The notes below the pieces were generated by a model. The model saw only the letters and a list, made by a program, of their open reading frames with translations. It was not told where the DNA came from and ran no database searches. From a virus (Duplodnaviria > Caudoviricetes), in IMG/VR virus record IMGVR_UViG_3300025018_002598, positions 1-64,000 of that record: a stretch of 64,000 nt of DNA; one strand, given 5' to 3'. Of the stretch, positions 23,001 to 37,746 are shown piece by piece; position 1 is the stretch's first letter, and each line of letters begins with the position of its first letter. A program made the translations under genes and the position numbers.

Positions 23001-26000
23001 ACTAGATCGTCAACGTCCTACTGATTATGGTTCCGAAAGAGCTTCTTCTGGAGCGGCTAAGGCAGAAGGACAGCACTCAGGTACTCAAGAGAGTCAGTTA
23101 CAAATGTCTCTCAACTATGGTTCTGAGAGATGGATTGACGACGCAGCTCCTTGTGATTATTTACCTACTACTGAAGGTCAGTTTTCTGGTAAGGACCGCA
23201 AAGGAAAGGCTGTTGATGAAGTTTACGAAGGTCAACTTACTGGACATAGACAAGGAAATGATTCTGAAGTTTCTTCAGAATCATTTCCTCACACAGCAAG
23301 TGTAGAAGATTATATTGCTGGTAAAGTTGTTACAGCAATTAAGAATGGTCTTACTAACCTTGTAATGGAACATGGTATATCTCCAAAAACAATTGTGAAT
23401 TCAAAAATTGATTCCAAGAAAATTGCTTCTGGAAATAGAAATAAAATTTTAAAGAAAGCACAACTTGCACAGGTTGATGTTCAGAATCTTGCAGAAAATG
23501 AAATTATAGACCAAATTGGTCCTAACATGGATTTGGCAGAAGATTATTTAGATGATGCAATTGTTGTATTGTTTGAAGATCCTGCCGAACTTGAAGCGGA
23601 ACTTAGAAATTATACAAAAGAAAGACTTGCTAAGATTCAAGAAGTTTCTGATAAAGAAGATTCTGATGAAACTGTAGAGTCTAAGAGAAGAAAAGCTCTT
23701 AAAGAAAAGGCTTTCAAGAGAAACGCAAATCGTGTCTCTATGCCTGTTGATGCTCAGAAATTAACAGAACTTTTCCCAGGAGTAAGTGACTTCACTGGTC
23801 TTGATGCTAAATTAGTTAAGCAGAAATTCCTTCAGTCTCAACCTGGTGCAAAACTTCTTGATTTCCGTAAAGTTGACGGTGGATTTGTTGCTGAAGTAGA
23901 ACTTCCAGAACAGTCTGGTGAAGAAAGTGGAAATTCCATTAATTCAAATGGTGTTCCATCTCCTTCAATTCCTTCCAACAATGCTCCTTCTCACGATTCT
24001 CAATCTGCTCAGTCTGCTCAGTCCGATCAGTCTGTAGAATCAACAGTCGAAGTTGCTGCCGAAACAGTTGATAAACTTAAAGCTTTTGCAAAGCAGAAGA
24101 AAGAAGCACAGTCTCCTGCTGGAACAACAATGCCTCCTCCTCAAGGTGGTGCCGCTGGTGGTGGCGCTGCTGGAGACCCAATGGGTGGCGGTGGTGCTCA
24201 AGATTTATTTGGGAACACTCCTGAAGGCGCTGGCGATGTCATTGATGAAACAGAGGATGATATGGAAGATGAAGTTGGAGAAGCTAAACCATTTGGTTCT
24301 TTCAACCCATTTACCGGAAATGAAAACGTAGATGTTGTAGATGGACACTATAGAGATTCTGATACAGGTCTTGAATGGGAAGTTCAGATGAACATCAATG
24401 TTCTTAATCCAGAAAAAATTGATGATATTCAGTTTAAAGAAAATACAGATGCCGACTCAGAACTTACTGAAGGCGAAGATATTAATGAAGAAATTGCTGG
24501 TCAGCCTAACGCTGCTCCAATGGGAGCACCTGCTGGTGGTGGCGCTGCTGCCGATCCAATGGGAATGGGTGCAGGTCCAATGGCGTCATATCCTGGCTGG
24601 GTAAAAGATGCTCCATTGAAACTTGCAATGAAAGCTTCTCCAGAATATTTCTTGAATGAAAAAATGAAAAGTGATCTTAATATCAAGACAGCCTCTAAGC
24701 CAGTCGGTTCTATCTGTCCTCAGTGTGCTTCACACAAAGTGGCTTTCAGAAACTCCGAAGGTAATTGTGCTTCTTGCGGATGTAAGACATATGTTACTGC
24801 TAAAAAGAATAAGGCTGGAAGTCTTGATGTAGATCTTTATATGCTTCCAAACCTTAAGAGAGCGGAAAAAGAAAACCGTTTTGGTGGACACGCAGTTACT
24901 GCGAATGTTGAAAACAAAGAAGTTGTAGAAAAAGCAATTCATCAGATTTTATCTGATAGAAGAGCTTTAGTAAAAGCAGCTTCTATATTAGAAAAAGATC
25001 CAATGCTTGCATGTATCAGCGAACAGTCTGTTCGTGGATTCGACTCAGAAGATTCGATTCAGATTTGTGCTTCCATTAAATCATATCTCACAAAACAAGC
25101 TCAATTTGAAGAAGAGGATGACGAAGAAGATGATAATTCAGAAGAAACTTCATCTCCAACAGTACATGATTCTGACTCAGAAGTAACTGATAGTGTTGAG
25201 TTTGAAGATGAAATTGATGAAAGTGGAGATTCCGAAGGTCTTGAAGAAGTTGAAGAAGAGTCAGATACAGTTGAAGATACTGACGATTCCGATCTTGAAG
25301 AAGTATTTGAAGATGAGTCTGGTGAAGAAGGTGACGACTTTAGTTTAAATCTTCAGTTCACTGATTCTGATGGTAAGTCTGGCAGCATTAACATTACAGA
25401 AGATGGTGTTGATGTAAACGGAGATGTTTTTGAAGGTGCGGAATCTACTGATGATTTCGGTTCAGACATCGCAGAAGACGGCGAAGAAATGTTTGAAGAC
25501 GAAATGGGTGAAGAAGCTCCTGAAGAAATTGAAATTACAGAAATCGTTGAAACAGAAGATGACGATCCATCTTCCTTGGACGGACTATTCTCTTCCTCTG
25601 TAGATAAACTCGATAGAGAAACAGAAGAATCCGAAGGTCCAAGTGAAGAATCTGAAGATGAATTTGACGTAATGGCAAATTCACTTAACACTTCTGAACT
25701 TCTTAGAGGTTCAAGAGTAGCTTCTTCAAATAGAAGCGGTGGTTCTTCTCTAGACCTTGGCTTCTTGAAAGCAGCTCTTCAGTCAGTTCCAACTGATACT
25801 GGAGCGGACGTTCCTAGAAGTGAAGAGCATGGTGTTCGTGACGAAGGTGGAAATGTTCATACAACTAAAAATGAAAATTCCGCAAAAAAAAGAAATTCTA
25901 TTGCCGACACTTCTTTTAATGAAAAGGGAGTAGCTAATGGATCAGACAGAGGAGTTGAACAAATCAAACCTCAAACTGGAAAACATGCTGGATCTGCTGA

Positions 26001-26697
26001 CGATTTTATTGTGACAGCGGGTGAAGACAATAAAGAAAAAGGCAAAAGAAAAGATGTTTGCCCAGACGACTTCGCTGATAAGCAATGTCCAGGAAAGGGT
26101 AAAGATAAATCAAACAAGCCTTACAAGGGTGGTGAGAAAGTAGAATCTTGTAATGCTGGTTCAGAAAAGAAGAAGGTTCAAGCTCAAACAGCACCTACTC
26201 AGCAATTAGAGCCAGTTGACGCAATTGAAGAAGGAAAAGAAGAGTCTAATGGAGAGAAGTTTGACATTCCAAGAGATAAATCTAAATCAAATCCTGAAAT
26301 CAATGTAAAGCGTAAAGATGTTACTAGCCCTACAAAGGTAAGAAATAGTGATTATGGCTTTGGTCAGAAAGCTAAAGATCTTCATACAGAAGTAGTTCCT
26401 AGAGACTCCTCTGGTGATGGACTTGGCGGACCTTCTACTACATTTGAAGATGAAGTAGCAGAGAATAGAACTTCTGGAAGTCCTGATACATATGTTCAGG
26501 AATATCAAAAGCAGAATCAGATCAAGCCAACTCCAGCAGGTAATGCAGAAAATCACGCCACAGCATCTAAAGAAGTTTGTATTAAGATAGCAAAAGCAAA
26601 TGACTTAAATGCTAATAGATTAGAAGCAATTAACTTTGGTTCATTCTATGTTGTTCGTGACCTAGATTCTGGAAGAACATTTAAATATTCAGAATAA
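20014..26697 (+). CDS. Giant prohead (maturation) protease with intein and long acidic scaffold-like tail
   Basis: Protease-like motifs ANDNGDFF, FTNHQN (His), RGKVINA, DVSMGA (Ser), FIELSAV; split Zn motif CSIC...C-H; located between portal and MCP. Confidence 0.85.
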   Translation: MFLKYAKLQILNVASFNKDFEKKSSMEDVVLYSPKTAFIKHDISENLIMAKNALDIVSELEQRDPEEWIVFRSRAIDAGGSEETGEIWHGANDNGDFFSEEELLKSYSSTEDGKEIKSFETFINCPIFTNHQNTDIEKARGKVINAFYDKDNHCVYTDALVDAKAYPELARGIREGYISDVSMGASVKFSDCSICNHRATNEKEYCVVPGTYIETENHTIKPIEDIEIGDKVLTQDGTYQSVLDIHEREIEDEIFEIYASGNNVPLEITGNHEVLTIPKMSYRMTFEQYIQRNDLKPVYKRTDELNIGDFVLYPKENLRKSENPLKSLRFARLLGLFISEGNLFRNKKGEINALEFHLSLEEKDLLEDLLNLIKEFAVREAKVYKKTSTYHIRIWDKDLAEKVVSLCGHGARTKSLSKEIINASGEFKINLLGGIIDGDGWVDPKDYRSVIVTSSDNLSYQIKKISQDLGFSCSIYKTLNTQNETVKYSSGEPNTINHVRFGSHATSIIKQGKCKKLEKLNCQEFEKATSSWIFDNYHVSKIRKISKKYYSGTVMNLAVENNENYIANGMIVHNCSHVKNHKGKKLGGKEVYEINHGIKFIELSAVTDGACDNCTIQNSYTGMEFLDKLKNMISASHSNAVALKKVAMFKGSAGDDIDKLNKSLDLLKGVAETILNSKDVDFEFLEDIGQLLAELQSLIVDLVEAGFANQNPAGETQGEGTQQQAADALTGGEEVPANQGAPPTGDNQSQGLMSPTSPVSLGGKEQNIKTANLLEGLKTQVPEIKKILASINNLKNQITFDGDEEMATSKNIKRKLASNRISEKFSEILESQVSNNEPAIISDGPYSVKIDFNKGIQGFVGNNRVIAMTVEEVGDDLLGLAKVNPSVIGGRLIEKLASKYDENGEVKMSKQAKDLNIKEAFIENPPPVEQVQEGQLEDLSGNFDRKNHPELAEGQIGATTQKQLENVPKSKETGKGDWNRVRPEGTKEDRYVQEIELDRQRPTDYGSERASSGAAKAEGQHSGTQESQLQMSLNYGSERWIDDAAPCDYLPTTEGQFSGKDRKGKAVDEVYEGQLTGHRQGNDSEVSSESFPHTASVEDYIAGKVVTAIKNGLTNLVMEHGISPKTIVNSKIDSKKIASGNRNKILKKAQLAQVDVQNLAENEIIDQIGPNMDLAEDYLDDAIVVLFEDPAELEAELRNYTKERLAKIQEVSDKEDSDETVESKRRKALKEKAFKRNANRVSMPVDAQKLTELFPGVSDFTGLDAKLVKQKFLQSQPGAKLLDFRKVDGGFVAEVELPEQSGEESGNSINSNGVPSPSIPSNNAPSHDSQSAQSAQSDQSVESTVEVAAETVDKLKAFAKQKKEAQSPAGTTMPPPQGGAAGGGAAGDPMGGGGAQDLFGNTPEGAGDVIDETEDDMEDEVGEAKPFGSFNPFTGNENVDVVDGHYRDSDTGLEWEVQMNINVLNPEKIDDIQFKENTDADSELTEGEDINEEIAGQPNAAPMGAPAGGGAAADPMGMGAGPMASYPGWVKDAPLKLAMKASPEYFLNEKMKSDLNIKTASKPVGSICPQCASHKVAFRNSEGNCASCGCKTYVTAKKNKAGSLDVDLYMLPNLKRAEKENRFGGHAVTANVENKEVVEKAIHQILSDRRALVKAASILEKDPMLACISEQSVRGFDSEDSIQICASIKSYLTKQAQFEEEDDEEDDNSEETSSPTVHDSDSEVTDSVEFEDEIDESGDSEGLEEVEEESDTVEDTDDSDLEEVFEDESGEEGDDFSLNLQFTDSDGKSGSINITEDGVDVNGDVFEGAESTDDFGSDIAEDGEEMFEDEMGEEAPEEIEITEIVETEDDDPSSLDGLFSSSVDKLDRETEESEGPSEESEDEFDVMANSLNTSELLRGSRVASSNRSGGSSLDLGFLKAALQSVPTDTGADVPRSEEHGVRDEGGNVHTTKNENSAKKRNSIADTSFNEKGVANGSDRGVEQIKPQTGKHAGSADDFIVTAGEDNKEKGKRKDVCPDDFADKQCPGKGKDKSNKPYKGGEKVESCNAGSEKKKVQAQTAPTQQLEPVDAIEEGKEESNGEKFDIPRDKSKSNPEINVKRKDVTSPTKVRNSDYGFGQKAKDLHTEVVPRDSSGDGLGGPSTTFEDEVAENRTSGSPDTYVQEYQKQNQIKPTPAGNAENHATASKEVCIKIAKANDLNANRLEAINFGSFYVVRDLDSGRTFKYSE
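20629..21735 (+). mobile_element. Intein 3 in prohead protease (369 aa, canonical, LAGLIDADG)
   Basis: Y|CVVPGTYIET start; ITGNH block B; LLGLFISEG and LGGIIDGDG boxes; ends NYIANGMIVHN|C. Confidence 0.92.
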
Positions 26698-26852: not shown

Positions 26853-28172
26853 ATGAGGAGTATAGGAATGAATAAAACACAATTATTTTCAGATGGAACC
26901 TTTATCACAGCTTCCGATTCTGGTGAAATAAAAAAGGCTACAAAGAATGAAGTCGTAGCATTTTTATCTTCACAGTTTCCGGCATCAAAAAGTGGTGCTG
27001 AGTTAGAGGGTGTGAGATTCGACAGTGAGTCTGGTTATGCATATGCAAGATATGCAAATCAAAAAGTTTTCAAGAAGAGAATAGCTCAATCGGCTCCAGT
27101 AAATCAAAGTGAGCCTGTTGATTCTTGCGACAGAACTCAGGAACATGGTGGAAAGAGTGAAAAATTCGACACACCAAGAAATGAGTCTAAATCAAAGCCA
27201 GAAAAGTCTGACAGAAAGGATGTTGATAATCCTACAAAAATTAGAAATAAGAATTATGAACCTGGAAAAGATAATGTTCATACTGATGAGGTTCCTTGCA
27301 GTAAGAGCAATTCGGGTCTAAAGGGCAGTAAGGGAACTACTTTTGATGAAGAGAAGTCTCATACTCAAAAAAGTGGAAACCCAGATTCATATGTTCAAGA
27401 TTTTTCCTCTTCAGAAAAGCCAACTCCAGCAGGTAAAGAAGGAAACCACGCAGTAGCTAATACAGAAGGTGTTCAAATTAAAAGTTCGTCAGATATGTAT
27501 GGTTATGAATCTGTAATGGGTGGCAAAGACGAAGATAAAGAAGGCAAAGGCTTTCCTTTCTTCGGAAAAGGGGACGATGAAGATAAAGAAGACAAAGAAG
27601 ATAAAGAAGACAAAGAAGATAAAACAGAAAAAGGCGCAGACAAAACCGAGAAATCTTCCAAAGATGATAAAAAGGAAGAAGGCGAGAAAAAAGAAAGTAA
27701 GGCGGAAAGCCAACTTAGTATAAAGGTATCTGAACTTCAAGGCAACCTATCTAAGTTAAGTAAAGAACTAGACAAAGGACGTATTCGTGAAGCCCGTCGC
27801 AATGCAGCCGTCAAGCTAGTCTTGGCAAAGCGAGACAGAAATCCAGAGAAGTTCCTTGATGGGGAAGTTTTCTTGGAAGAAGTTAACAAGATCGCAAAGA
27901 AAATGAGTGTAGAAGCAATCGAAACAGCAATTGAAGAAATCGGTATTATTAGATTACAAGAAGTAGAAAATTCGAAAGCGATCAAAGAAGCTGCTGCTGA
28001 ACTAAAAGCAGAACCAAACAGAGCAGGCTTAATGCAAAGCCTTGTTGTCCCACAGGACAATTATAAATTTGCAAGCAAGTCAAATGAATCAAATCTATCA
28101 GAAGTTCTGATGGCACATACCAAATTTGGTAAAGATGTAGAAAAAATGAGAAAGTACCATGAGGAAAATTAA
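26853..28172 (+). CDS. Capsid scaffolding-like protein
   Basis: Between protease and MCP; EDK repeats, C-terminal coiled coil, terminal LSEVLMAHTKF; N-terminal module paralogous to the protease tail. Confidence 0.65.
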   Translation: MRSIGMNKTQLFSDGTFITASDSGEIKKATKNEVVAFLSSQFPASKSGAELEGVRFDSESGYAYARYANQKVFKKRIAQSAPVNQSEPVDSCDRTQEHGGKSEKFDTPRNESKSKPEKSDRKDVDNPTKIRNKNYEPGKDNVHTDEVPCSKSNSGLKGSKGTTFDEEKSHTQKSGNPDSYVQDFSSSEKPTPAGKEGNHAVANTEGVQIKSSSDMYGYESVMGGKDEDKEGKGFPFFGKGDDEDKEDKEDKEDKEDKTEKGADKTEKSSKDDKKEEGEKKESKAESQLSIKVSELQGNLSKLSKELDKGRIREARRNAAVKLVLAKRDRNPEKFLDGEVFLEEVNKIAKKMSVEAIETAIEEIGIIRLQEVENSKAIKEAAAELKAEPNRAGLMQSLVVPQDNYKFASKSNESNLSEVLMAHTKFGKDVEKMRKYHEEN

Positions 28173-28205
28173 AATGTTTCTCGCTAAATTCGGAGGAAAA
28201 AAATT

Positions 28206-28823
28206 ATGTTAATTCCTATTTTTCGTGTAATAGCATCTCAGTTCCCAGTAGATACACTTACTGGCAATGTTGAGATGGGAATGGCTGTGGGTCTAGTAGA
28301 AAATTCTGCTGGAAACGTAGTTATTCGTAAGTCCGACGACAACGCTGCTGCGAATACAGCTCAAAACGTCGTTGGAATCGCAGGTGACAGAAAGCGTGCT
28401 TCTGAAGCCTATGAGTGGACCAATCGTGTCTCTGACATGGGTGATGATACTTCTGCCAGCGGTCTTATGACTGTTTATCATGGCGGTGGTGAATTCTGGT
28501 TCGACGTTGATGATGGTAACATCACAACTCCACTAAATGAGTCTACAATTCGTGGACCTATTTCCAGTGCGGCAACAATTACAGTTGGTGGATATCTTTA
28601 TGTAGCTGACTCTTCTCAATCAAATGAGGAATCTGGTCAGTTCCATAACTCTGAAAGTACAGCAATCGTTCGCTCCGGCGAAGGTGTTCCTGTCCTTCAG
28701 GTTGTTTCTAAGGCATCCAGCATTGAATCCGGTATTCCAGGTGAATACGAACCAGGTTCTAGCGTGAACTACCCTGATCCATCCGTTCCTAGAACATGGG
28801 TTAGAGCAAGAGTTCTAGTCTAA
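28206..28823 (+). CDS. Head decoration / minor capsid protein (putative)
   Basis: GGAGG SD; immediately upstream of MCP; beta-rich (MGMAVGL, VVGIAGD, GLMTVY). Confidence 0.55.
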   Translation: MLIPIFRVIASQFPVDTLTGNVEMGMAVGLVENSAGNVVIRKSDDNAAANTAQNVVGIAGDRKRASEAYEWTNRVSDMGDDTSASGLMTVYHGGGEFWFDVDDGNITTPLNESTIRGPISSAATITVGGYLYVADSSQSNEESGQFHNSESTAIVRSGEGVPVLQVVSKASSIESGIPGEYEPGSSVNYPDPSVPRTWVRARVLV

Positions 28824-28864
28824 TAGCTTGTGTATAGCAAATTCTTATATAGGGAGACACTAAA

Positions 28865-29731
28865 ATGAGTTTAATCAAGAATACAGCTAATGATGCAGAA
28901 AAAGAGTTGCTTATCGCACAGGCTCTTGAAACACCAGAAGGTCGTGTGGCTTTGGCCCAGGCTATGGTGGAGCCTATCAAGCGAGCACTTGAGTATCAAG
29001 CAATCGGTAGAAAGCTTCTAATGGTGGATGAACTTCCACAGGGAGCGTTGGCAAGATACGAGAAGGACGTAGCGTCTACAGCTTATGTTGTTTCAAGACG
29101 TGGTGGCGTCCGTGACCGTATCGTTGAAGGCGAAGAAGTGTTGGTTCCAACATTTGAAATCGCAACAAATCCTCAGATTCGTTTGAGTGAAATTAAAGCA
29201 CGTAGATTTTATATCGTTGACCGTGCGCAGATGAAAGCTAAAGAAGCTATTCAGAAGCAAGAAGATACCGAAATTCTCGGTGATATTAATGCTGCTGTTC
29301 GTTCTGACCAGACTGTAACTCAGTCCGGTGACTTGAGCATCGCTTCTCTTAACTATGCTTTCTCTACAATTGAGTCTCACGACTTAACTGTAGCTAAGAT
29401 CGTTATGCACCCACAGCAGTATGCTGACATCCGTTTGTTCGGACGTGACGTGTTTGACGAAGCAACAAGACGTGACGTACTTATGTCTGGTCTCTTCGGA
29501 CACCTTTGGACATCCGACATTCACGTTTCACACAGAGTACCACCAGGTTCCGTTTACTTACTAGCTCCGGCTGAGTATGTAGGTGCTATTCCAGTAAGAC
29601 AGGACATTACTGTTCTTCCTGCTGACGATCCTAAGAACTTGAGACTTGGATGGGTTATCTTTGAAGAAATCGGTATTGTTGTTATCAACGACTACGCAAT
29701 CGCAAAGATTAATCTCACAGCAACTAGCTAA
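28865..29731 (+). CDS. Major capsid protein (HK97-fold type)
   Basis: Last gene of the portal-protease-scaffold run; codon usage visibly shifted toward C-ending codons; followed by a strong terminator; motifs VPTFEI, IQKQED, GLFGHLW, GAIPVRQD. Confidence 0.88.
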   Translation: MSLIKNTANDAEKELLIAQALETPEGRVALAQAMVEPIKRALEYQAIGRKLLMVDELPQGALARYEKDVASTAYVVSRRGGVRDRIVEGEEVLVPTFEIATNPQIRLSEIKARRFYIVDRAQMKAKEAIQKQEDTEILGDINAAVRSDQTVTQSGDLSIASLNYAFSTIESHDLTVAKIVMHPQQYADIRLFGRDVFDEATRRDVLMSGLFGHLWTSDIHVSHRVPPGSVYLLAPAEYVGAIPVRQDITVLPADDPKNLRLGWVIFEEIGIVVINDYAIAKINLTATS

Positions 29732-29759
29732 TCAGTAGTTGACAACCACAAACCCAATG

Positions 29760-29790
29760 GGGGCGGGCCGAAAGGCTCGCCCCTTTCTTT
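29760..29790 (+). terminator. Intrinsic terminator after MCP
   Basis: GGGGCGGGCC-GAAA-GGCTCGCCCC hairpin followed by TTTCTTT. Confidence 0.9.
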
Positions 29791-29791
29791 A

Positions 29792-30769
29792 TTAGTAATA
29801 TCTGTCAATAAAATTAATGACTTCATTGTCCGTCATTTCAAAACTAAAATCAATAGATCCATCTCTTACAAATCTTTCAATCTCACGTATCATTCTAGAT
29901 CTTAAAGATAGTATTTCTGAAATGTATCTATCTTTAGACAACAAAGAAGTCTCTTGAGAGAATAGATCGTATATATATTCATTAATTTTAATATAATCTA
30001 TTTCTTCATTTCCCTTTACTTTTTCTTGAAAATTTTCTAATTCACGATCTAAAAAGTCTGACTGTCCAGAAAGTACAGATTCTTTTATTGAATAATTAAG
30101 AAAATAAGGTCTCAAAATAGAAGTCCCCCATGAAATATCTCTAAAGCCATATGATGTAAGATATTCACCTCGACTTATATGAATTACCCTATCTTCTTTC
30201 AATGTATTTTTATTAGAAATTACATCTCCAGTCCCATAGATATATTCTTTTCTTCCATTTTCCATCTTTTGTTCAACATTGTCTGGAATAAGATTTGAAA
30301 TAGATAAATATGTTCCTGAACTTAAATATTTATTCATATTTGAAGATACAAAATTATCTCCAAATAAAAAATAGTTTCTAGCGAGTTCGACGACTATTTG
30401 ATTCATCTCAAGCAAGACTTCTTTTTGTCTGTCTGAACCTTCCATTTTAAACTTGTAGAATTGAAAAGACGACAATCTCTGTATTGTTTCAGAAACTTCA
30501 GAGTAGTTTGTATTGTAATATCTACAATAAGTATAGGTCTCCCTTCGTTTTGTAGGTAATTGCCACTTCATCGCAGCGAGATGCTGAATAAAATGATCTT
30601 CCGGCTCTAGATTGGCCGCTTCTTTCTGAGTCCTACTTAATCCGTATTCTTTCAATTTATATCTAACGTATCTTGACGTATAATTCAAGATTTCTGATAT
30701 CTCGTAACTGGATTTCCTCTGTTTGATGTATAGGTCGTAAAGAATATCTCTATTTATTTGCTTTTTCAT
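29792..30769 (-). CDS. HTH domain fused to a truncated portal paralog
   Basis: N-terminal HTH (LYDLYIKQRKSSYEISEILN...YKLKEYGL). It then aligns with the portal extein: WQLPTKRRE/WQIPTKRRE, CRYY/CRFF, NYFLFGDNF/DYFSMGDCF, ISNLIPDNVE/ISILNPDTVE, VIHISR...WGTSILRP/ITHLKH...YGVSILVP. Confidence 0.8.
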   Translation of the reverse strand: MKKQINRDILYDLYIKQRKSSYEISEILNYTSRYVRYKLKEYGLSRTQKEAANLEPEDHFIQHLAAMKWQLPTKRRETYTYCRYYNTNYSEVSETIQRLSSFQFYKFKMEGSDRQKEVLLEMNQIVVELARNYFLFGDNFVSSNMNKYLSSGTYLSISNLIPDNVEQKMENGRKEYIYGTGDVISNKNTLKEDRVIHISRGEYLTSYGFRDISWGTSILRPYFLNYSIKESVLSGQSDFLDRELENFQEKVKGNEEIDYIKINEYIYDLFSQETSLLSKDRYISEILSLRSRMIREIERFVRDGSIDFSFEMTDNEVINFIDRYY

Positions 30770-30790
30770 GATGACTACCTCCGTCGAAGT

Positions 30791-30814
30791 CTAGGAAATG
30801 ATACAATTTCCTAG
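30791..30814. promoter_or_regulatory. 9-bp inverted repeat centred on an extended -10 (TGnTACAAT) in a divergent intergenic region
   Basis: CTAGGAAAT-GATACA-ATTTCCTAG; TG at 30799-30800 and TACAAT at 30802-30807; followed by a T tract. Confidence 0.45.
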
Positions 30815-30872
30815 TTTGTTTTTTATGGCCATTTGTTGTCTCGTATCAATTTGAAAAAATAGGAAGATTAAA

Positions 30873-31052
30873 ATGGAAAGAAAAGAAAAAATAAAACTTA
30901 CGTATGAAATGAGGAACAGAACGGGGCTTTCAATGATTATTTGCTATAGAGAGTTAGAGGCGAATGATTGGGATATAGAAAAGGCCAGTAAATGTTATAG
31001 GGATCGCACTCTCCGTGAAAAGAGTAAAAGAGGAGATTTCATCACATGGTAA
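30873..31052 (+). CDS. Stand-alone EF-Ts N-terminal (UBA-like) domain protein, 59 aa, not in ORF track
   Basis: EMRNRTGLSMIICYRELEANDWDIEKA resembles EF-Ts ELRERTGAGMMDCKKAL..ANGDIEKA; AGGA upstream. Confidence 0.7.
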   Translation: MERKEKIKLTYEMRNRTGLSMIICYRELEANDWDIEKASKCYRDRTLREKSKRGDFITW

Positions 31053-31348
31053 CAAAGGATGTTCTTCTGCTAAGTTTATTACAATGGGGAAATCGTCAAC
31101 TAAGTAGAGTAAACAATCCTCATAGATTTTTAGTCGTAATACCTAACGATTTCAATAAAAATGAAATTTTAGAATTTACCAATTCTTACATTCAAGAAAC
31201 AAGTCAAAAATATTTTATATTAATAAAAGAAAATGAAATAAAAGGTAAATATGATATTCATGGACATTCTTGCAATGTTGTATTTTATAAGACTTCTAAA
31301 TTTGAAGACTTAGAATATGCTAAAAATATTTTTATTCCAATGAACTAG
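31046..31348 (+). CDS. Hypothetical protein
   Basis: GAGGAG SD; start overlaps previous stop. Confidence 0.65.
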   Translation: MVTKDVLLLSLLQWGNRQLSRVNNPHRFLVVIPNDFNKNEILEFTNSYIQETSQKYFILIKENEIKGKYDIHGHSCNVVFYKTSKFEDLEYAKNIFIPMN

Positions 31349-31383
31349 GCATGAAGATCTTAATTTTGTAGAGGTACTTTAAA

Positions 31384-31830
31384 GTGGACAAAAAGAAAAG
31401 CGTTTGTTGGAATATAGATCTTACTCAAAAACCAATTGAGCCTAATGAGAAAAGATTAAAAATCAATAAGGCAAAATTTGAATACGAAGGAAAACAATAT
31501 GAATTCGAAGTTTTAGATGTCGTTCATCTTGGAACTTTACCAGAGTGGCAGTTTTCAGATAGAATGTTAGAAACTTGTGGTTTGACTCTATGTATTGTTT
31601 TTGATTCGTATTCAAACAACTTTAACGATACGAATTTAGGTTTGTCAAAAAAGACTTTTACTCTTTGGTTGAGCGGCGATGGAATTTCTTTTCCCGTAGA
31701 AGTTCATGGAGGGAATTATAATCGAAAAGATAATCCAGTTGCAGGTCCAGGAAAATCCTATGATTATGGATATGAAGTAGATACTGATTGTTTTTTTGCA
31801 TGTTCTTCTCCATGCTATTTCAAGAAATAA
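31384..31830 (+). CDS. Hypothetical protein
   Basis: GAGG SD before GTG start; 148 aa. Confidence 0.7.
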   Translation: MDKKKSVCWNIDLTQKPIEPNEKRLKINKAKFEYEGKQYEFEVLDVVHLGTLPEWQFSDRMLETCGLTLCIVFDSYSNNFNDTNLGLSKKTFTLWLSGDGISFPVEVHGGNYNRKDNPVAGPGKSYDYGYEVDTDCFFACSSPCYFKK

Positions 31831-31842
31831 AAAGGATTATAA

Positions 31843-32169
31843 ATGGACAAATTAGATCAAATAAAAAAAGAATTAAAATATTTAGAATTTGCAAAACATT
31901 GTTCTAATGAAAATTTTCCAGCCTATGATCTTTTTGTTAATTATTTCTGCGACAGAGATCCTTATAATTCAGATAATGCAAGAAAAGAGATTAGAGATTT
32001 AATTCATGAAAAACAAACTTTGATATTAGAAGAGGCCTTGAAGACCCCAGAGGGAAAAGAAGCCTTATCTAAATATTTTAAAGATGAAGAAGATAAGCGC
32101 CTAAAAGATGAAGAAAAAAAAGAAAGTAGTAGATTTTATGCTCAGAGAAAAGGAATTGACCTACAATGA
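31843..32169 (+). CDS. Hypothetical protein containing an MCP N-terminal-like segment
   Basis: EKQTLILEEALKTPEGKEAL vs MCP EKELLIAQ-ALETPEGRVAL. Confidence 0.7.
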   Translation: MDKLDQIKKELKYLEFAKHCSNENFPAYDLFVNYFCDRDPYNSDNARKEIRDLIHEKQTLILEEALKTPEGKEALSKYFKDEEDKRLKDEEKKESSRFYAQRKGIDLQ

Positions 32170-32327
32170 TTGATGAAAATGTATTAGATGTTTTTCTAAA
32201 AGAAAGAGAAATAAAATCTAAAGAAATGTCCGAAAGAAGAAAAAAAGAAAGAGTGGTATCCAGCCCATCTCCCATTGCTAATGATAGAGTTAAGGGAAGA
32301 TTTCCCACTTCAAAAGATGTTGAATAA
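32166..32327 (+). CDS. Small hypothetical protein (53 aa), not in ORF track
   Basis: ATGA overlap with the previous stop; AAGGA upstream; MIDENVLDVFLKEREIK... Confidence 0.5.
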   Translation: MIDENVLDVFLKEREIKSKEMSERRKKERVVSSPSPIANDRVKGRFPTSKDVE

Positions 32328-32544
32328 AAAATATTCAGATTTAACTTCAAGATATTACTGTCCAAATTGTGGCAATAAATTAAAGTATGAAAATTCAGAA
32401 GAGGCATTAAGGGAATATAAAGAAGTTGAAGTAAAGTTAAATGAATACCTTAAACTTCATCATCCTCTTAAAATACGCAGTGATCAAGAATCCTATGAAA
32501 CGCCAAGGGGCGACGACTCCTTTGCTATATCTTTTGTAGATTAA
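32275..32544 (+). CDS. Small CPxCG Zn-ribbon protein (likely start ATG 32317)
   Basis: YYCPNCGNKL motif; AAGGGAAG upstream of ATG 32317. Confidence 0.6.
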   Translation: MLMIELREDFPLQKMLNKKYSDLTSRYYCPNCGNKLKYENSEEALREYKEVEVKLNEYLKLHHPLKIRSDQESYETPRGDDSFAISFVD

Positions 32545-32556
32545 GGAAATGTATAA

Positions 32557-33054
32557 ATGGAAGTTATAAAAAAAACAGTTTATAAAACTTCTGACGGAAG
32601 AGTTTTTCTAGATATAAATAAGGCAAATTCTCATGAAGAAACAATAAAACTAATGAAAAGGGATGCGAAAGTCAAAGACTTAGAAAAAAAAGTTAAAGAT
32701 CTCTTTCCCATTTCGAAAAAAGTCAACTGTGAACAAGACAAAGAACTTATGGAATTAACAAAGAAGATTCCTAGTTATTTAGAATATCGAATAGATTTGT
32801 ATTGTGAATTCACTGGAATTCCTCTAAGGGTATACTCTACTAAATTCCATGACAGTGGACATCAGTATGAAAAAAGCTATTCAGAAGATATAGATAGAAT
32901 TTTAGATAGACCGCATACAATCTTAAGGTTGGGTAACGTGGTTAGGACATATTCTAAAGAATCTTATAAAAAAGACATTGTTCCTATTTTAGAGAAAAAC
33001 CATCTAGTCATAAAGAAATATTTGTTTGAGTTCTATACTGGAGTGTTGAAATGA
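32557..33054 (+). CDS. Hypothetical phage protein
   Basis: AAGGA SD; N-terminal YKTSDGRVF motif common in small phage proteins. Confidence 0.7.
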   Translation: MEVIKKTVYKTSDGRVFLDINKANSHEETIKLMKRDAKVKDLEKKVKDLFPISKKVNCEQDKELMELTKKIPSYLEYRIDLYCEFTGIPLRVYSTKFHDSGHQYEKSYSEDIDRILDRPHTILRLGNVVRTYSKESYKKDIVPILEKNHLVIKKYLFEFYTGVLK

Positions 33055-33245
33055 AAAAAGAAGATAAATACGTAGGCGCCATTCCAGTAAGACAGGACAT
33101 TACTGTGCTTCCAGCAGATAAAGAAGAAGGATTGAAGTTAGGATGGATAATTTATGAAGAACTTGGCCCAATCCATTTTGCTGAAGTTTTCTGGAAAGAT
33201 TTTTCTGATGAAGACAAGATAAAGAAAATCAACGAATATAGATGA
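33051..33245 (+). CDS. Small protein built from an MCP C-terminal fragment
   Basis: YVGAIPVRQDITVLPAD is identical to MCP residues 238-254, followed by LKLGWIIYEELG vs LRLGWVIFEEIG. GGAG SD and ATGA overlap. Confidence 0.8.
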   Translation: MKKEDKYVGAIPVRQDITVLPADKEEGLKLGWIIYEELGPIHFAEVFWKDFSDEDKIKKINEYR

Positions 33246-33251
33246 GACGAA

Positions 33252-33494
33252 ATGAAGCATATAATCAGAAAAGAATTATATGAAACGAAAGAATATACTA
33301 TTGAAGAAATTCACGAAGAATTATATGAAACGAAAGAATATACTATTGAAGAAATTCACGAAGAATTAAATCGAAGATTAGAGGCGACAAAAGAAAAGGA
33401 CTTGCCGAGATATTTATCTTACAATAAAGATAAGTTTGAGTATGATGAAGATGGAAAAATAATAAAAGTAATTAGTTTGAGAGAAGAGGTTTGA
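33252..33494 (+). CDS. Hypothetical protein with internal tandem duplication
   Basis: ELYETKEYTIEEIHE x2. Confidence 0.7.
   Translation: MKHIIRKELYETKEYTIEEIHEELYETKEYTIEEIHEELNRRLEATKEKDLPRYLSYNKDKFEYDEDGKIIKVISLREEV
33271..33368 (+). repeat. Perfect 45-bp in-frame tandem duplication
   Basis: The unit starting aagaattatatgaaacgaaag recurs at 33271 and 33316, with a partial copy at 33361. Confidence 0.92.
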
Positions 33495-33940
33495 TTGTGC
33501 CAACTTATCCTATAGAATTAGATAGAGGAATTTTTGAAATTGCCGTCTCTGATTATGTCGAAAAAAAGATGGATAAAATTGATTTTATTCGCAATTATGT
33601 GGTGAGAAGTTTAGAGAATGAAGTGAAAGGAAAAATAGTAAGAATCTTGTCTGCTCATTTCCACCAAGATCCTATGATGCGTCAAAACATATATAGAATA
33701 GAAGTAGATTACATCCATGAAGAAAGATATGGAGATCATCTTGGTTCTGTATTTTCTCAGTTATTAGAGAATGGAAGTTATAGAAATCCAGAATATGATG
33801 AGCTTAGATTTGAACAACAATATTTTGTGGACTTTCTACCTACGACTCCCGTACTAAAGCCTTCGAAAGAAAAAGTAAAAAAAGAAATTACATATACCAA
33901 AATAGATTTAGATGATTTTAAATTCATGGAAGTTGAATAG
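33491..33940 (+). CDS. Hypothetical protein, weak similarity to MCP central region
   Basis: IVPTYPI vs MCP LVPTFEI, with a compatible downstream hydrophobic pattern; GAGG SD fits GTG 33497 best. Confidence 0.6.
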   Translation: MIVPTYPIELDRGIFEIAVSDYVEKKMDKIDFIRNYVVRSLENEVKGKIVRILSAHFHQDPMMRQNIYRIEVDYIHEERYGDHLGSVFSQLLENGSYRNPEYDELRFEQQYFVDFLPTTPVLKPSKEKVKKEITYTKIDLDDFKFMEVE

Positions 33941-33954
33941 GAAAGGAAAAAATA

Positions 33955-34587
33955 ATGGGAATGTATACTGTTGTAATTCACCCTGAAACAAAAGAAGAGA
34001 TTCAGATAAAGTGTGGTGGAGATTGGTGTGATAAATATGAAGTGGGAGATGAAGTCCCATTCAAAATACATCCTGATTGTTCTATGATGGCAGATTTTGC
34101 TGATGGGATCTATGTTGGGCTTGGCGAAAGAAATGATTTCAAAAGTTTCAACAGTTACTATGTTGTAATTTGTGAAGGGAAGATTGCAGAGGTTTCCGAA
34201 AAATATCACTCTATGGATTCTAGGGCTGGTTATGAAAGAGAAGAACTTTACAATAAATATAAAGATCGTTTTATAGAACTTGAAAAGTCTTGGTGGAGTG
34301 ATGAGGCTTGGAAAAAAGACGAAGAACTAAAGAAAGAACTTGAGATTAAAAGGAAAGAATATTTAGATAGACATCATCCTAATTATGAAAAATATAGTGA
34401 TGAAGAGAAATTTACAGCCAATGTAGTACATGCAATGTCTGCTTCTAGGCTCAATTACCAAGAGATTGGTAAAAAACTTATGTCCATACAAGAACTACCT
34501 CAAGGTGCTTTGGCTAGATATGAAAAAGACGTTGCCAGTGTTCATCATGTTGTAGGGAAGAGGGAAGAAAATGAAAATAAGAATTGA
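33955..34587 (+). CDS. Chimeric protein: small phage domain plus C-terminal MCP fragment
   Basis: C terminus YQEIGKKLMSIQELPQGALARYEKDVAS vs MCP YQAIGRKLLMVDELPQGALARYEKDVAS. Confidence 0.82.
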   Translation: MGMYTVVIHPETKEEIQIKCGGDWCDKYEVGDEVPFKIHPDCSMMADFADGIYVGLGERNDFKSFNSYYVVICEGKIAEVSEKYHSMDSRAGYEREELYNKYKDRFIELEKSWWSDEAWKKDEELKKELEIKRKEYLDRHHPNYEKYSDEEKFTANVVHAMSASRLNYQEIGKKLMSIQELPQGALARYEKDVASVHHVVGKREENENKN

Positions 34588-34768
34588 AATGTGGGAAGAT
34601 TTTGCATATTCCCTTGGAGAATTGAAAAACGAAACTACATCCTTTTGTGCGATTGCTGAAGTCACTGAAGAAGAACATAAAGAGATGCAAAGAATAATGA
34701 AAGATTACTATAGTTTACAGGAAAGATTAACAGATCTTTATTCAAAATACGAAAAGGAAAAAAAATGA
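34571..34768 (+). CDS. Hypothetical protein
   Basis: 65 aa, overlapping both neighbours in operon style. Confidence 0.6.
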   Translation: MKIRIEMWEDFAYSLGELKNETTSFCAIAEVTEEEHKEMQRIMKDYYSLQERLTDLYSKYEKEKK

Positions 34769-35220
34769 GTTTAGAATCAGATAAAAAAAACGAAGAGTTA
34801 ATTCAATTGGCATTAGAGACAGGAGCGGGAAAGCGAGCAATACAAGAGGCTCTTGGCGGATATGAAATGTTTAAAAGAAACTTAGATGATAAGAATAAAA
34901 ACCTTGTCGAAAGATTAAATGAATCATATTCTAAAATAGAAAATCAATATGAAGAAATGGGCGACAAAGAGTATATAATTCCATTCGGAGTGAAATGTCT
35001 GGTGGAAGCGAGAGACTTTCTATTAAAACATCAGGCTTGGGAAGCGAAAATGTTGGAAACAGATGAATGCTGGGAAGACTCATTACCAAAATTAAATCAA
35101 GAACTATATGATGAATCTTTAGATATTCAGGGAAATAGAAACCACCTATTAAGTCGTATTGAAATGCAATTAAATATTATAATTAAAAAGAATGAGGAGA
35201 AACAAAATGCCAAGTCTTGA
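34765..35220 (+). CDS. Hypothetical protein with MCP N-terminus-like start
   Basis: MSL...EELIQLALETGAGKRAIQEAL...KRNL vs MCP MSL...ELLIAQALETPEGRVALAQAM...KRAL. Confidence 0.7.
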   Translation: MSLESDKKNEELIQLALETGAGKRAIQEALGGYEMFKRNLDDKNKNLVERLNESYSKIENQYEEMGDKEYIIPFGVKCLVEARDFLLKHQAWEAKMLETDECWEDSLPKLNQELYDESLDIQGNRNHLLSRIEMQLNIIIKKNEEKQNAKS

Positions 35221-35323
35221 TCAACATATAGCAGACTGTATAGAAGAGATGGGTAAGGGGCACAGAGAAGTTCATATTTGGTTGGATGAATACTTTAATA
35301 CTATGGGTCCAAAGCATATCTGA
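35207..35323 (+). pseudogene. Apparently truncated small gene (38 aa)
   Basis: GAGGAG SD + ATG; MPSLDQHIADC...REVHIWLDE...GPKHI* stops where the convergent - strand unit meets it. Confidence 0.4.
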
Positions 35324-35394
35324 TTCATTCTCAAGCAGATCGATGGCCTCCTCAAGGGATATTGCCTTTTTGATAAAATACGACCAATTTGACA

Positions 35395-35700
35395 TCACAC
35401 TATATCCGAAACGGGCGTATCCGACCACATCTTACAAGACCAGTATTTTGCTTTCCATTTAGGTCCAGGATTGTCACATCCATGACGTGCCCTAAAGTTC
35501 TTCTTAGCTTCTGGGTTGTCTCTTCTTATTTCCATATTTGGATCGCCAAAGTTAACTTTGACAACATTTCCCTTATCGTTTTTCACGAAGACTTTATATT
35601 TTTTAACGTCACCCTTTGTGGGTTTGTTTAGTGTAACTTTTTTACCCTGATATTCAGATTTAGATTCTGAAAACTTCATTAAATTAAATTTCGACATCAA
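35395..35700 (-). CDS. Conserved phage hypothetical protein (FRARHxC...YWSCxxW motif) with FNLMKFS leader
   Basis: EYQGKKVTLNKP...VNFGDPNMEIRRD...FRARHGCDNPGPKWKAKYWSCKMW is a pattern I recognise from large myophages. Confidence 0.75.
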   Translation of the reverse strand: MMSKFNLMKFSESKSEYQGKKVTLNKPTKGDVKKYKVFVKNDKGNVVKVNFGDPNMEIRRDNPEAKKNFRARHGCDNPGPKWKAKYWSCKMWSDTPVSDIV

Positions 35701-35708
35701 ATTTCACC

Positions 35709-36911
35709 TCAACCTTGAATTGTTTTTTTTAAGTATTCTAAATACTTTTTACTAATATTATCCCAACTGTTATCATTACAGAATTTCTTCTGTTTTTCAA
35801 TTACTTCATTGTAAAATTTTTCATCAGAAAAATACCTATCTATAATCTTAGCAATTCCCTCTGGATTATCAGAAGAAGGAACTCCTATTGATTTTAAGTC
35901 GTCAAATAGGTGACACTCTCCAACAACAAGGGGAAGTCCAAAAGACATTGCTATCTTAGAGGCTCCAGAAGATCCTCTAACATCATGATCGGGATGTGTT
36001 TTGTAAGGAAGAACACAAACCTTATTTGTCTTAAGAGACTCTGCCAAACCTTCGTCACTAATGAAACCTCTTACAATCCCTACATTATCATCGATCTCCA
36101 ACTCTTCGACTATTTTCTTTAGTTTGTTATAGTATTCATCATGGATATTTATATTGTTTTTATTCTCAGAAAAGAAACATGTAAGGTATATTTCTGGATA
36201 CTTTTCAATCAGTATTTTTATAGATCTTATTGTTGATTCGAAATTCTTATAGGGAAAACCAAAACCATATTGAATGACAGTATGTTCTGTTTGATATAGA
36301 TTCCAGTTCTTATCTAAATTCATTTCTGGACAACCATGATGAATGACTTCGATAGAATTTGTATATCCCTTTTTTATCAAAAGTTCTTTTGCTTCTTCTG
36401 TATGCACAATTACATTTCTCAAAGGGCTTTCACAAAGAAACTTATCTTTATGTTCATATACTGAATGCAATGCAACAACATATGGATAGTCTTGAATGAA
36501 TGTCAATAAGTTATACCAATGAACAACGGTTGGAAATATACCGTATTCATGTTGAACTAATATGGCATCAGGATTAAACTGTTTAATCTCTTTCTTTAGA
36601 TTTTTGATGGATTCTCTTCTTCTCCAGCAATAAACTACTTCTATGTCTTTGTAATTTTCTTTAGATGTTTCTGAATCGTTTTTTGTTTTATACTCTGAAA
36701 AAATCCTGATATTCTTATTTGTCTTTAGCATAGAGTCAACTAGGAATTTAGAATACGTGCTAATTCCACATGACTGGTCCCAATTTGTAATCAAGGCAAC
36801 TTTGAAATCCTTAAGAGATTTCATTTCTGATGAGTTTTGAAAGTTCATTGTATTCTCCTGTTCTTTCGAGAAACTGATTAACCTTTTCAGAACGTTCATA
36901 TTGGACCTCAT
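35709..36911 (-). CDS. GT4 (GT-B) glycosyltransferase (likely start ATG 36824)
   Basis: WDQSCGISTYS, VQHEYG, VIHHG, GFGFPYKNF, VLPY...SSGA...AMSFGLPLVV. Confidence 0.88.
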   Translation of the reverse strand: MRSNMNVLKRLISFSKEQENTMNFQNSSEMKSLKDFKVALITNWDQSCGISTYSKFLVDSMLKTNKNIRIFSEYKTKNDSETSKENYKDIEVVYCWRRRESIKNLKKEIKQFNPDAILVQHEYGIFPTVVHWYNLLTFIQDYPYVVALHSVYEHKDKFLCESPLRNVIVHTEEAKELLIKKGYTNSIEVIHHGCPEMNLDKNWNLYQTEHTVIQYGFGFPYKNFESTIRSIKILIEKYPEIYLTCFFSENKNNINIHDEYYNKLKKIVEELEIDDNVGIVRGFISDEGLAESLKTNKVCVLPYKTHPDHDVRGSSGASKIAMSFGLPLVVGECHLFDDLKSIGVPSSDNPEGIAKIIDRYFSDEKFYNEVIEKQKKFCNDNSWDNISKKYLEYLKKTIQG

Positions 36912-37746
36912 TTAAGGATGTCAATATTTTATTTTTACTAAATTCATAATAATCAATATATGGAATTTCAAAATCTTTGCAAAATCTTTTTAGTTTTGAA
37001 TGAAATCCTATACATATCGTTGGAATGTTATAGATTATACCTAAGACCATTCCATGATATCTCATTGAAATCAAATATTTTGAGTTTTCAATTCTATTGA
37101 TTATTTCATCTTCATTAGTAACTTCATCGAATTTTCTATTTAAAGAATAACTGTTAATATTATGGTAAACATGAGAGTCATTGTGTTGACGTGTTCTTTG
37201 TAAAGGGTAAAAGCTTGTAGGTTTTTTGTATTCATCTAAGAATCTTGAGGTCTCTACACAAAATCTTTGATATTCTTGAAATTTAGATATACTAGAATTA
37301 TTTCTAGGGACTACATTGGAGTTTGGAATGAAAATAAGATCGGTTGGATTTCTTTTTCCATTCAAAACATAAGGTGGATTGAGAAAATTGATGTCTGGTA
37401 AAAGAATTACATTATCATGTTCTTCCTTTACAATATCATAACTTTCAGAATCTCTTAATATTACTCTTTTTGAATTTGCTAAGAATTTTTTTTCATTAGC
37501 ATGTGACAATGAGATAGACCAGAATTCAAATGGTCTATCTACATGCTTTAATACATCTGCCAATTCTCGGTGAAGAATATTTCCTCCACCAACAATAAGG
37601 TATTTGTATTTTTGTTCGCTTACTTTTTTTAAATCGAAACTAAATTCTAATCTAAGACCATAGAAAAGTTTTTGAAAGGTTTGTTTAAACCATTCATCAC
37701 CATAATTTCCCTGATTATACCAGCCATAAAAAAGAATGTCTGTCAT
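36811..37746 (-). CDS. Polysaccharide pyruvyl transferase family protein
   Basis: GWYNQGNYGDE, IVGGGNIL, VILRDSES, LLPD, ISMRYHGMVLG, YHSKL-like FHSKL. Confidence 0.88.
   Translation of the reverse strand: MTDILFYGWYNQGNYGDEWFKQTFQKLFYGLRLEFSFDLKKVSEQKYKYLIVGGGNILHRELADVLKHVDRPFEFWSISLSHANEKKFLANSKRVILRDSESYDIVKEEHDNVILLPDINFLNPPYVLNGKRNPTDLIFIPNSNVVPRNNSSISKFQEYQRFCVETSRFLDEYKKPTSFYPLQRTRQHNDSHVYHNINSYSLNRKFDEVTNEDEIINRIENSKYLISMRYHGMVLGIIYNIPTICIGFHSKLKRFCKDFEIPYIDYYEFSKNKILTSLNEVQYERSEKVNQFLERTGEYNELSKLIRNEIS

Follow-up and report, generated by a model that had tools for sequence, protein, structure and literature searches.

A family of uncultured-phage proteins with a C-terminal module homologous to the N-arm of phage-G-type capsid proteins, and its possible role as a docking mimic

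ORF 33955 in the window, by which we mean the whole 64,000-nucleotide stretch of viral DNA analysed, is a real gene, belonging to a widespread and unannotated protein family from uncultured phages. Profile comparisons indicate that the C-terminal module of this family is homologous to the N-arm of HK97-fold major capsid proteins (MCPs) of the phage G type, at MCP aa about 20-70; a 16-residue peptide shared between ORF 33955 and the MCP of its own phage is the distal end of this module and not a stray fragment. It may be that in this phage a related MCP gene has renewed the distal tail, or that the two have stayed in step, and that the tail serves as a docking mimic; to this reading, taken with the capsid-arm module as a whole, we give an even chance. 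The features concerned are the following, in window coordinates.

28865-29731, plus strand: MCP (P0001, 288 aa), HK97 fold, phage G gp27 type (phrog_2522, E 2.7e-70)
28949-29101, plus strand: end of the MCP N-arm and first E-loop strand, aa 29-79, the copied segment (core at 29030-29077)
31843-32169, plus strand: ORF 31843 (108 aa), aa 53-77 marginally resembling MCP aa 13-37 (E 0.04)
33051-33245, plus strand: ORF 33051 (64 aa), second MCP piece (MCP profile, E 1e-16)
33955-34587, plus strand: ORF 33955 (P0002, 210 aa), member of an unnamed family from uncultured phages (phmmer, alignment A1, AF2)
33955-34200, plus strand: its N-terminal beta domain, aa 1-82 (AF2 strands, pLDDT above 90)
34231-34374, plus strand: its helical linker and hairpin, aa 93-140, including WWSDEAW (AF2 helices; motif conserved in the family)
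34399-34563, plus strand: its C-terminal MCP N-arm-like module, aa 149-203 (BLASTP, hhalign, family profile to 6WKK)
34492-34539, plus strand: the 16-residue core ELPQGALARYEKDVAS, identical to MCP (codon table)
34765-35220, plus strand: ORF 34765 (151 aa), aa 5-30 marginally resembling helix 1 of the MCP N-arm, about aa 14-39 (E 0.01)

The window lies within an 83-kb IMG/VR virus record rated 95% complete, and short contigs of the same phage are present in several aquifer and groundwater metagenome runs; four aquifer runs that were compared show zero differences, the tail of ORF 33955 being covered in three of them. The MCP is 53.5% identical to gp27 of Bacillus phage G, and the MCP profile of the clade matches the solved gp27 chain (PDB 6WKK) with an E-value of 7e-117. 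Across 30 MCPs of 63-93% identity, most columns of aa 26-68 are invariant. The AF2 model of the MCP is poor (pLDDT 58.5, and below 50 for aa 35-121 and 243-270). Collinearity with the nearest relatives extends through the MCP gene and stops there, and the stretch from 29.8 to 38.2 kb has no counterpart in L004-L008. This island has a G+C content of about 30%, versus 45% in the MCP gene, and its small plus-strand ORFs are densely packed. An origin by way of an intron or homing endonuclease was considered and rejected, as Rfam models returned nothing over positions 28000-37000 and no endonuclease gene was found in the island. PADLOC, whose models describe defence proteins and not anti-defence proteins, matched none of ten island proteins. 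Directly after the MCP terminator there is a 325-aa minus-strand ORF (29792-30769) with no Pfam match. The 2227-aa ORF farther upstream (20014-26697) contains about 1.1 kb (20631-21736) that is inserted with respect to L004-L008, and the protein sequence encoded there appears intein-like by eye.

The ATG of ORF 33955 is preceded by a purine-rich stretch (GGAAAGGA), its 3' end overlaps the next ORF, and its frame is intact in AT-rich DNA. Built with the family alignment, the AF2 model of P0002 has a mean pLDDT of 88.1 and a pTM of 0.72; it predicts beta-domain strands at residues 5-8, 15-18, 27-29, 51-59, 65-73 and 76-82, helices at 93-105, 116-140, 149-163 and 168-175, and an unstructured C-terminal end (pLDDT about 47 over aa 191-210). 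The protein has no match in Pfam, PHROG or PADLOC. A Foldseek search of the whole model against the PDB gave no match at E<=0.001, and a wide VIA-align search with the same model stayed below Z 5, covering the helical hairpin only. MCP profiles align only to aa 164-204, equivalent to MCP positions about 40-85. ORF 33955 carries the MCP N-arm motif P-I-K/R-x-x-L-x-Y-Q-x-I/V-G-R-K-L-L-x-V-D-x-L-P-Q-G-A; the other 160 residues bear no likeness to MCPs, and the full HK97 fold of ~280 aa (phrog_2522 / PF25209) is absent.

Word-based searches with ORF 33955 returned MCPs only, as expected of an orphan, but a full HMMER search overturned that reading. With P0002 as the phmmer query over 1.84 billion representatives there were 179 matches at E<=0.001, about 120 of which are relatives aligned from residue 1 (best E 6.6e-25, over residues 1-190). 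Members of this family are 165-210 aa long, come from metagenomes, start with MGMFT, and share an architecture of N-terminal beta domain, WxEEAW-type linker, helical hairpin and C-terminal tail. The W-x-E-E-A-W linker and the hairpin are both present in P0002, with WWSDEAW at aa 113-119. In alignment A1 (67 sequences) Q17 and D23 are invariant and M1, T5, G21, G31, D50, Y53 and V70 nearly so, and P0002 conforms at these positions. The family tail reads P-(L/I)-x-R-x-L-N-Y-x-S-I-(G/A)-R-K-(L/I)-F-x-V-E-(P/E)-L-P, continuing in many relatives with x-G....Y-x-K-(D/E); P0002 has this motif as SRLNYQEIGKKLMSIQELP. Counted over 66 relatives, the tail columns hold Y in 41, R in 46, I/L/V in 58 and V/I in 49.

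The family was not found at full length in GenBank phages (queries including P0177 and P0172), is covered by no Pfam, PHROG or PADLOC model, is absent from 50 IMG/VR records carrying this MCP type (six of them near complete), and was sought without success in 401 Patescibacteria genomes. A scan with a narrower family alignment found one locus in IMG/VR and five in metagenomes, all of them lacking an MCP within reach, and locus scans with the members P0193 and P0172 gave nothing usable. On three other contigs (L128, L129 and L131) the family gene stands among RecA-like, Mre11/Rad50-like, kinase and glycosyltransferase genes and not among head genes; with recombination, replication and glycosyltransferase neighbours such as these, a structural role is not favoured. 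L129 also holds two tandem paralogues of the ORF 33955 family, after the Mre11/Rad50-like genes (8797-9798, Ga0265297_10009975), the first with a well-kept arm-like tail and the second with a decayed one. In a 255-kb relative (the L053 record, G032:C1:25074-25250), a 127-aa frame far from that record's MCP matches the family profile in the tail part only (E 3.7e-5), and may be another stand-alone arm-like ORF.

Homology of the tail to the capsid arm is apparent when P0002 itself is left aside. A family profile made without P0002, aligned by hhalign to the 30 MCPs, places 41 tail columns on MCP aa 29-69 (96.6%, E 5.4e-10), and the sole real PDB match of the family profile is phage G gp27 (6WKK, residues 12-57, E 0.003). 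The MCP profile in turn matches 28 of 122 other members, in the tail only and always in register, with some of these 28 tails extending back to MCP position 7-20. By tblastn, the tail of P0172, a member 29% identical to P0002, finds the MCPs of the uncultured phage LR745208, of Tunturiibacter phage Tunturi_5 and of phage G. The best-kept tail columns (P, Y, I, G/A, R, K, V, L, P) correspond to the invariant MCP residues P37, Y44, G48, R49, K50, V54, L57 and P58, and to I47, which is strongly conserved in MCPs while lying outside their invariant or nearly invariant columns. Since the N-arm-like module is common to the whole family, the similarity is old and has been kept at the family level, which supports selection on the protein.

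The original prediction that ELPQGALARYEKDVAS is encoded twice, at 29030-29077 in the MCP gene and at 34492-34539 in ORF 33955, was confirmed from the sequence, together with its codon table: four of the 16 codons are the same (E, the second L, R and D) and 12 differ silently, including TCT versus AGT for Ser. In the wider segment, MCP aa 42-79 against ORF 33955 aa 166-203, 26 of 38 residues are identical (BLASTP E 5e-15) and 69 of 114 nucleotides, in a comparison of tail and own MCP that amounts to one pair from a single genome. The MCP profile matches the tail of ORF 33955 at an E-value of about 1e-14, and the likeness is therefore far above chance. With 10-12 differences in 38 positions, an identical run of at least 16 has a chance of 0.003-0.015. 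The suggestion that this region would fall near the E-loop is likewise consistent with how the segment aligns to phage G gp27 and with the helices predicted for it, by which it would lie at the end of the N-arm and lead into the first E-loop strand.

The codon differences have to be read against their background. Among the five subclade MCP genes for which DNA was available (the window and L004-L007), pS is 0.68-0.84 and pN 0.06-0.13 over the whole gene, at 84-93% protein identity, and silent divergence within the 38-codon segment is at the same level. Subclade MCP orthologues are thus saturated at silent sites, so that codon differences alone do not prove selection after copying: any two capsid genes of the subclade would give the same peptide in different codons, a recent capture from an unsampled donor would look alike, and the age of the copy is not datable from silent differences. 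Third positions of the core are G or C in three of 16 codons in ORF 33955 versus eight of 16 in the MCP copy, in agreement with the AT-rich usage of the surrounding island.

The proximal half of the P0002 tail (LNYQEIGKKLMSIQ) has family-type residues at positions that are invariant or nearly invariant in MCPs (N for E43, E for A46, K for R49, I for V54 and Q for D55). In the distal half, the 16 residues from ELP onwards are identical to MCP and the likeness runs on to aa 79, further into the first E-loop strand than the tails of most relatives go. Conservation within the family falls mainly on the part matching MCP 37-58, and the core lies mostly beyond it; its Tyr is reached by 19 of 66 relatives and its last three residues by 5-8, with LP.G....Y.K(D/E) kept in about a third. 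Among MCPs, the exact core is confined to the subclade to which the window belongs; elsewhere in the clade the sequence is YERDVA. or GAYARYEKDVR. The fragment shows more likeness to other MCPs of the subclade (74%) than to that of its own phage (68%), and after the core ORF 33955 reads VHHVVGKR, versus VAHVIGRR in the other subclade MCPs and TAYVVSRR in the resident MCP; the MCPs nearest to it are P0003-P0012, of the VASVAHVIGRR type. Compared codon by codon, none of 80 related MCP genes is the DNA donor (best 74/114 overall and 41/48 in the core). Two 24-mer scans of IMG/VR gave one exact match only, in the MCP of L032, which was rejected as a donor because shared preferred codons explain the 24-nt match and the protein differs just downstream.

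We infer that the distal tail either was replaced by sequence from a related MCP gene or has evolved in step with such a gene. Renewal could have come about through recombination within the V-(D/E)-E-L-P stretch that the tail shares with a related MCP gene, the other possibility being tight co-evolution; the distal tail would since have been held by protein-level selection, its silent sites drifting to the AT-rich usage of their surroundings. Selection in the new context and capture from a related phage's MCP were originally put forward as alternatives, and each now seems to be part of the story and neither the whole of it. Selection is supported by the long-kept, family-wide tail, but the silent differences are no more than background and the core is mostly distal to what the family conserves; capture agrees with a core that matches the subclade MCP variant and is nearer to other members than to the resident gene, but its DNA donor was not found.

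More of the capsid gene is present in the island. Residues 6-41 of ORF 33051 correspond to MCP aa 237-272, the P-domain hairpin, with a core (YVGAIPVRQDITVLPAD) that is identical at 17 of 17 residues; this core has no amino-acid and seven silent changes, and at 44 of 51 nucleotides identical to the resident MCP gene it is less diverged in DNA than the core of ORF 33955. A word-based search found no relative of ORF 33051 as a whole. The likenesses of ORF 34765 and ORF 31843, both to the first helix of the MCP arm, are marginal, with E-values that refer to the MCP profile among 118 island frames, and a resemblance of 'LIVPTYPIE' in ORF 33491 to MCP 92-100, noticed by eye, was dropped for want of profile support (E 8).

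Pieces of MCP also occur elsewhere. In L007 (IMGVR_UViG_3300042261_001794, 11007-13011) a LAGLIDADG_2 endonuclease gene (E 1.3e-20) lies just after the intact MCP gene, and immediately behind it are ORFs that hold decayed pieces of the MCP, aa 40-73 and 72-118. A contig of a Saccharibacteria-labelled MAG (L092, CAYYLG010000001.1, 9667-10288) has adjoining ORFs with MCP aa 236-287 and then 13-81, the same C-piece-then-N-piece order as in the window; a full MCP was not found in that 0.7-Mb bin. Six short metagenome proteins (P0016, P0156, P0152, P0118, P0143 and P0119) have a twin-arginine (Tat)-like leader fused to MCP aa about 14-86 and then stop, with the MCP pieces in permuted order in P0119. 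The record L063 (IMGVR_UViG_3300025030_000053) contains, 5 kb after its MCP gene, a divergent 358-aa MCP paralogue (15745-16818) matching MCP positions 47-143 and 218-284. MCP-family fragments P0040-P0158 break repeatedly at about 126/127 and 217/218, with several pairs on one long contig; these recurrent breakpoints hint at introns, inteins or frameshifts in the MCP genes of relatives.

Two readings would leave the peptide without a function in ORF 33955. By the first, the distal tail is a recent and selectively neutral capture from the MCP gene of a related, unsampled phage; the identical peptide and the silent differences would then both be inherited from the donor's capsid-gene history. 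The silent-site saturation of subclade MCP orthologues, the fragment's closeness to MCPs other than the resident one, the position of the core largely outside the conserved part of the family tail, and the sampling of DNA from only five subclade MCP genes all lean this way. We nonetheless think such a capture unlikely, given that neither the 80 MCP genes nor the IMG/VR scans yielded a donor, that the family conserves the tail as a whole and about one relative in three retains LP.G....Y.K(D/E), and that the reading frame has stayed open in AT-rich DNA and shows no difference in three further runs covering the tail. By the second reading, the MCP-like stretches of the island are decaying remains of a duplicated or imported capsid gene in chance open frames. 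The scrambled order of the pieces in the window recalls such a history, as do the decayed pieces behind the endonuclease gene of L007. For ORF 33955 this is very improbable and already close to refuted: its relatives number about 120, its fold is predicted with confidence and its tail runs through the family, the 16- and 17-residue cores show zero amino-acid changes beside diverged flanks, and an identical run as long as the observed one is seldom due to chance.

We hypothesize instead that the C-terminal tail probably mimics the capsid arm at the molecular level, most likely docking the protein onto whatever binds that arm, and would thereby bring the N-terminal domain to the arm's normal binder. 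Disordered by itself and placed at the end of the protein, the tail is a copy of the MCP's most conserved segment, and such is the anatomy of a docking peptide. Because the arm helix of the 80alpha capsid protein is where scaffold binds, a copy of the arm could bind scaffold or replace the arm in the lattice. As the partner we tentatively favour a head-assembly component, either the capsid protein itself or a scaffold, at somewhat less than an even chance, over a host sensor of capsid protein, which would be a rather unlikely partner. Complex prediction for the MCP and the tail (aa 140-210) gave a score of 0.01, which weighs neither for nor against such a contact. Upstream of the MCP gene, a 439-aa candidate scaffold (26853-28172) and a 205-aa protein (28206-28823) are encoded. 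A sensor would be the target if the protein were an immune decoy or addressed inhibitor, its tail displaying the capsid-arm epitope and its N-terminal domain blocking or trapping the host protein. The non-structural neighbourhoods of family genes in L128, L129 and L131 and the further small ORFs with MCP pieces in the same island are compatible with a decoy; there is precedent for a virion-protein mimic that traps its sensor (DSAD1, PMC10973363), and capsid proteins are reported to trigger bacterial immunity directly (CapRel, PMC9712102). We regard a decoy as doubtful, however, in that copying a trigger faithfully might just as well activate the defence, and for a tail kept across relatives of ~30% identity a phage partner that is itself conserved is an easier explanation than a sensor common to their hosts. 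Quite improbable is an inter-phage weapon, in which the arm copy would cap or poison the shells of co-infecting relatives in a dominant-negative-like manner: a gene in a variable island without counterpart in the nearest relatives, copying the MCP segment most conserved across the clade and so suited to many competitors, would be well placed for this, but the identical core of the resident MCP means that self-poisoning must be avoided.

Should the tail truly work as a copy of the capsid arm, the family would give access to one of the basic contacts by which HK97-type heads assemble, in a clade whose heads, holding genomes of about 40 kb up to more than 500 kb, are made from the same shell protein; if the partner is a host sensor of capsid protein, the family would be equally informative. 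As it is common in metagenomes and absent from cultured phages, Pfam and PHROGs, naming the family and its arm module would annotate many 'hypothetical' proteins. A more general lesson is that the same peptide in different codons is by itself no evidence of selection where the parent genes are saturated at silent sites. It is tempting to speculate, at a strength well short of probable, that capsid-arm mimics are a general and undescribed class of phage accessory proteins in which the most conserved arm of the phage's own capsid protein is copied and serves as the address of an effector domain unrelated to it. The island here would then comprise at least four small capsid-piece genes, whose products either block the host's sensors of virion proteins or control how heads are assembled, and the distal tail of ORF 33955 would keep step with the capsid gene through repeated recombination between the two homologous segments.

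Among known systems, the nearest is phage G gp27 itself (6WKK; phrog_2522), whose arm, aa about 12-70, is homologous by sequence to the tails of ORF 33955 and its family. ORF 33955 has the arm and the start of the E-loop, without the second E-loop strand, spine helix, A domain and P domain, and carries the module at the C-terminus of an unrelated beta domain; with most of the gp27 fold missing and the module so placed, its product cannot build a shell. Other second capsid-derived genes keep the whole fold: the vertex protein gp24 of T4 is a full-length MCP paralogue and, like the 358-aa ORF of L063, differs in this from ORF 33955, which keeps about 50 residues. The internal proteins of T4 bear N-terminal capsid targeting sequences that bind the scaffolding core and are removed by the head protease. 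These resemble the ORF 33955 tail as a short terminal peptide on an otherwise unrelated protein, in their case addressing the assembling head, but they are N-terminal and not derived from capsid protein.

A parallel in principle may be drawn with 80alpha, whose scaffold binds the N-arm helix of the capsid protein through a C-terminal helix-and-hook (RIIK), and with the satellite SaPI1, whose CpmB carries a copy of that scaffold tail and competes with it (PMC5644958). There too a short C-terminal tail is common to two proteins, and it engages the capsid assembly interface (PMC5644958). The copied tail in that system is the scaffold's, however, and the mimic is the satellite's, whereas ORF 33955 copies the capsid protein and its docking is predicted; P0002 has no RIIK or similar motif, so that the likeness to CpmB is one of principle only. 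DSAD1 of SPbeta-like phages imitates the tail tube protein and traps DSR2 (PMC10973363). It is an accessory phage protein, as ORF 33955 would be, and by imitating a virion protein it takes up the site at which that protein binds a partner (PMC10973363); unlike ORF 33955, it imitates the tail tube, and its partner is a known host defence protein.
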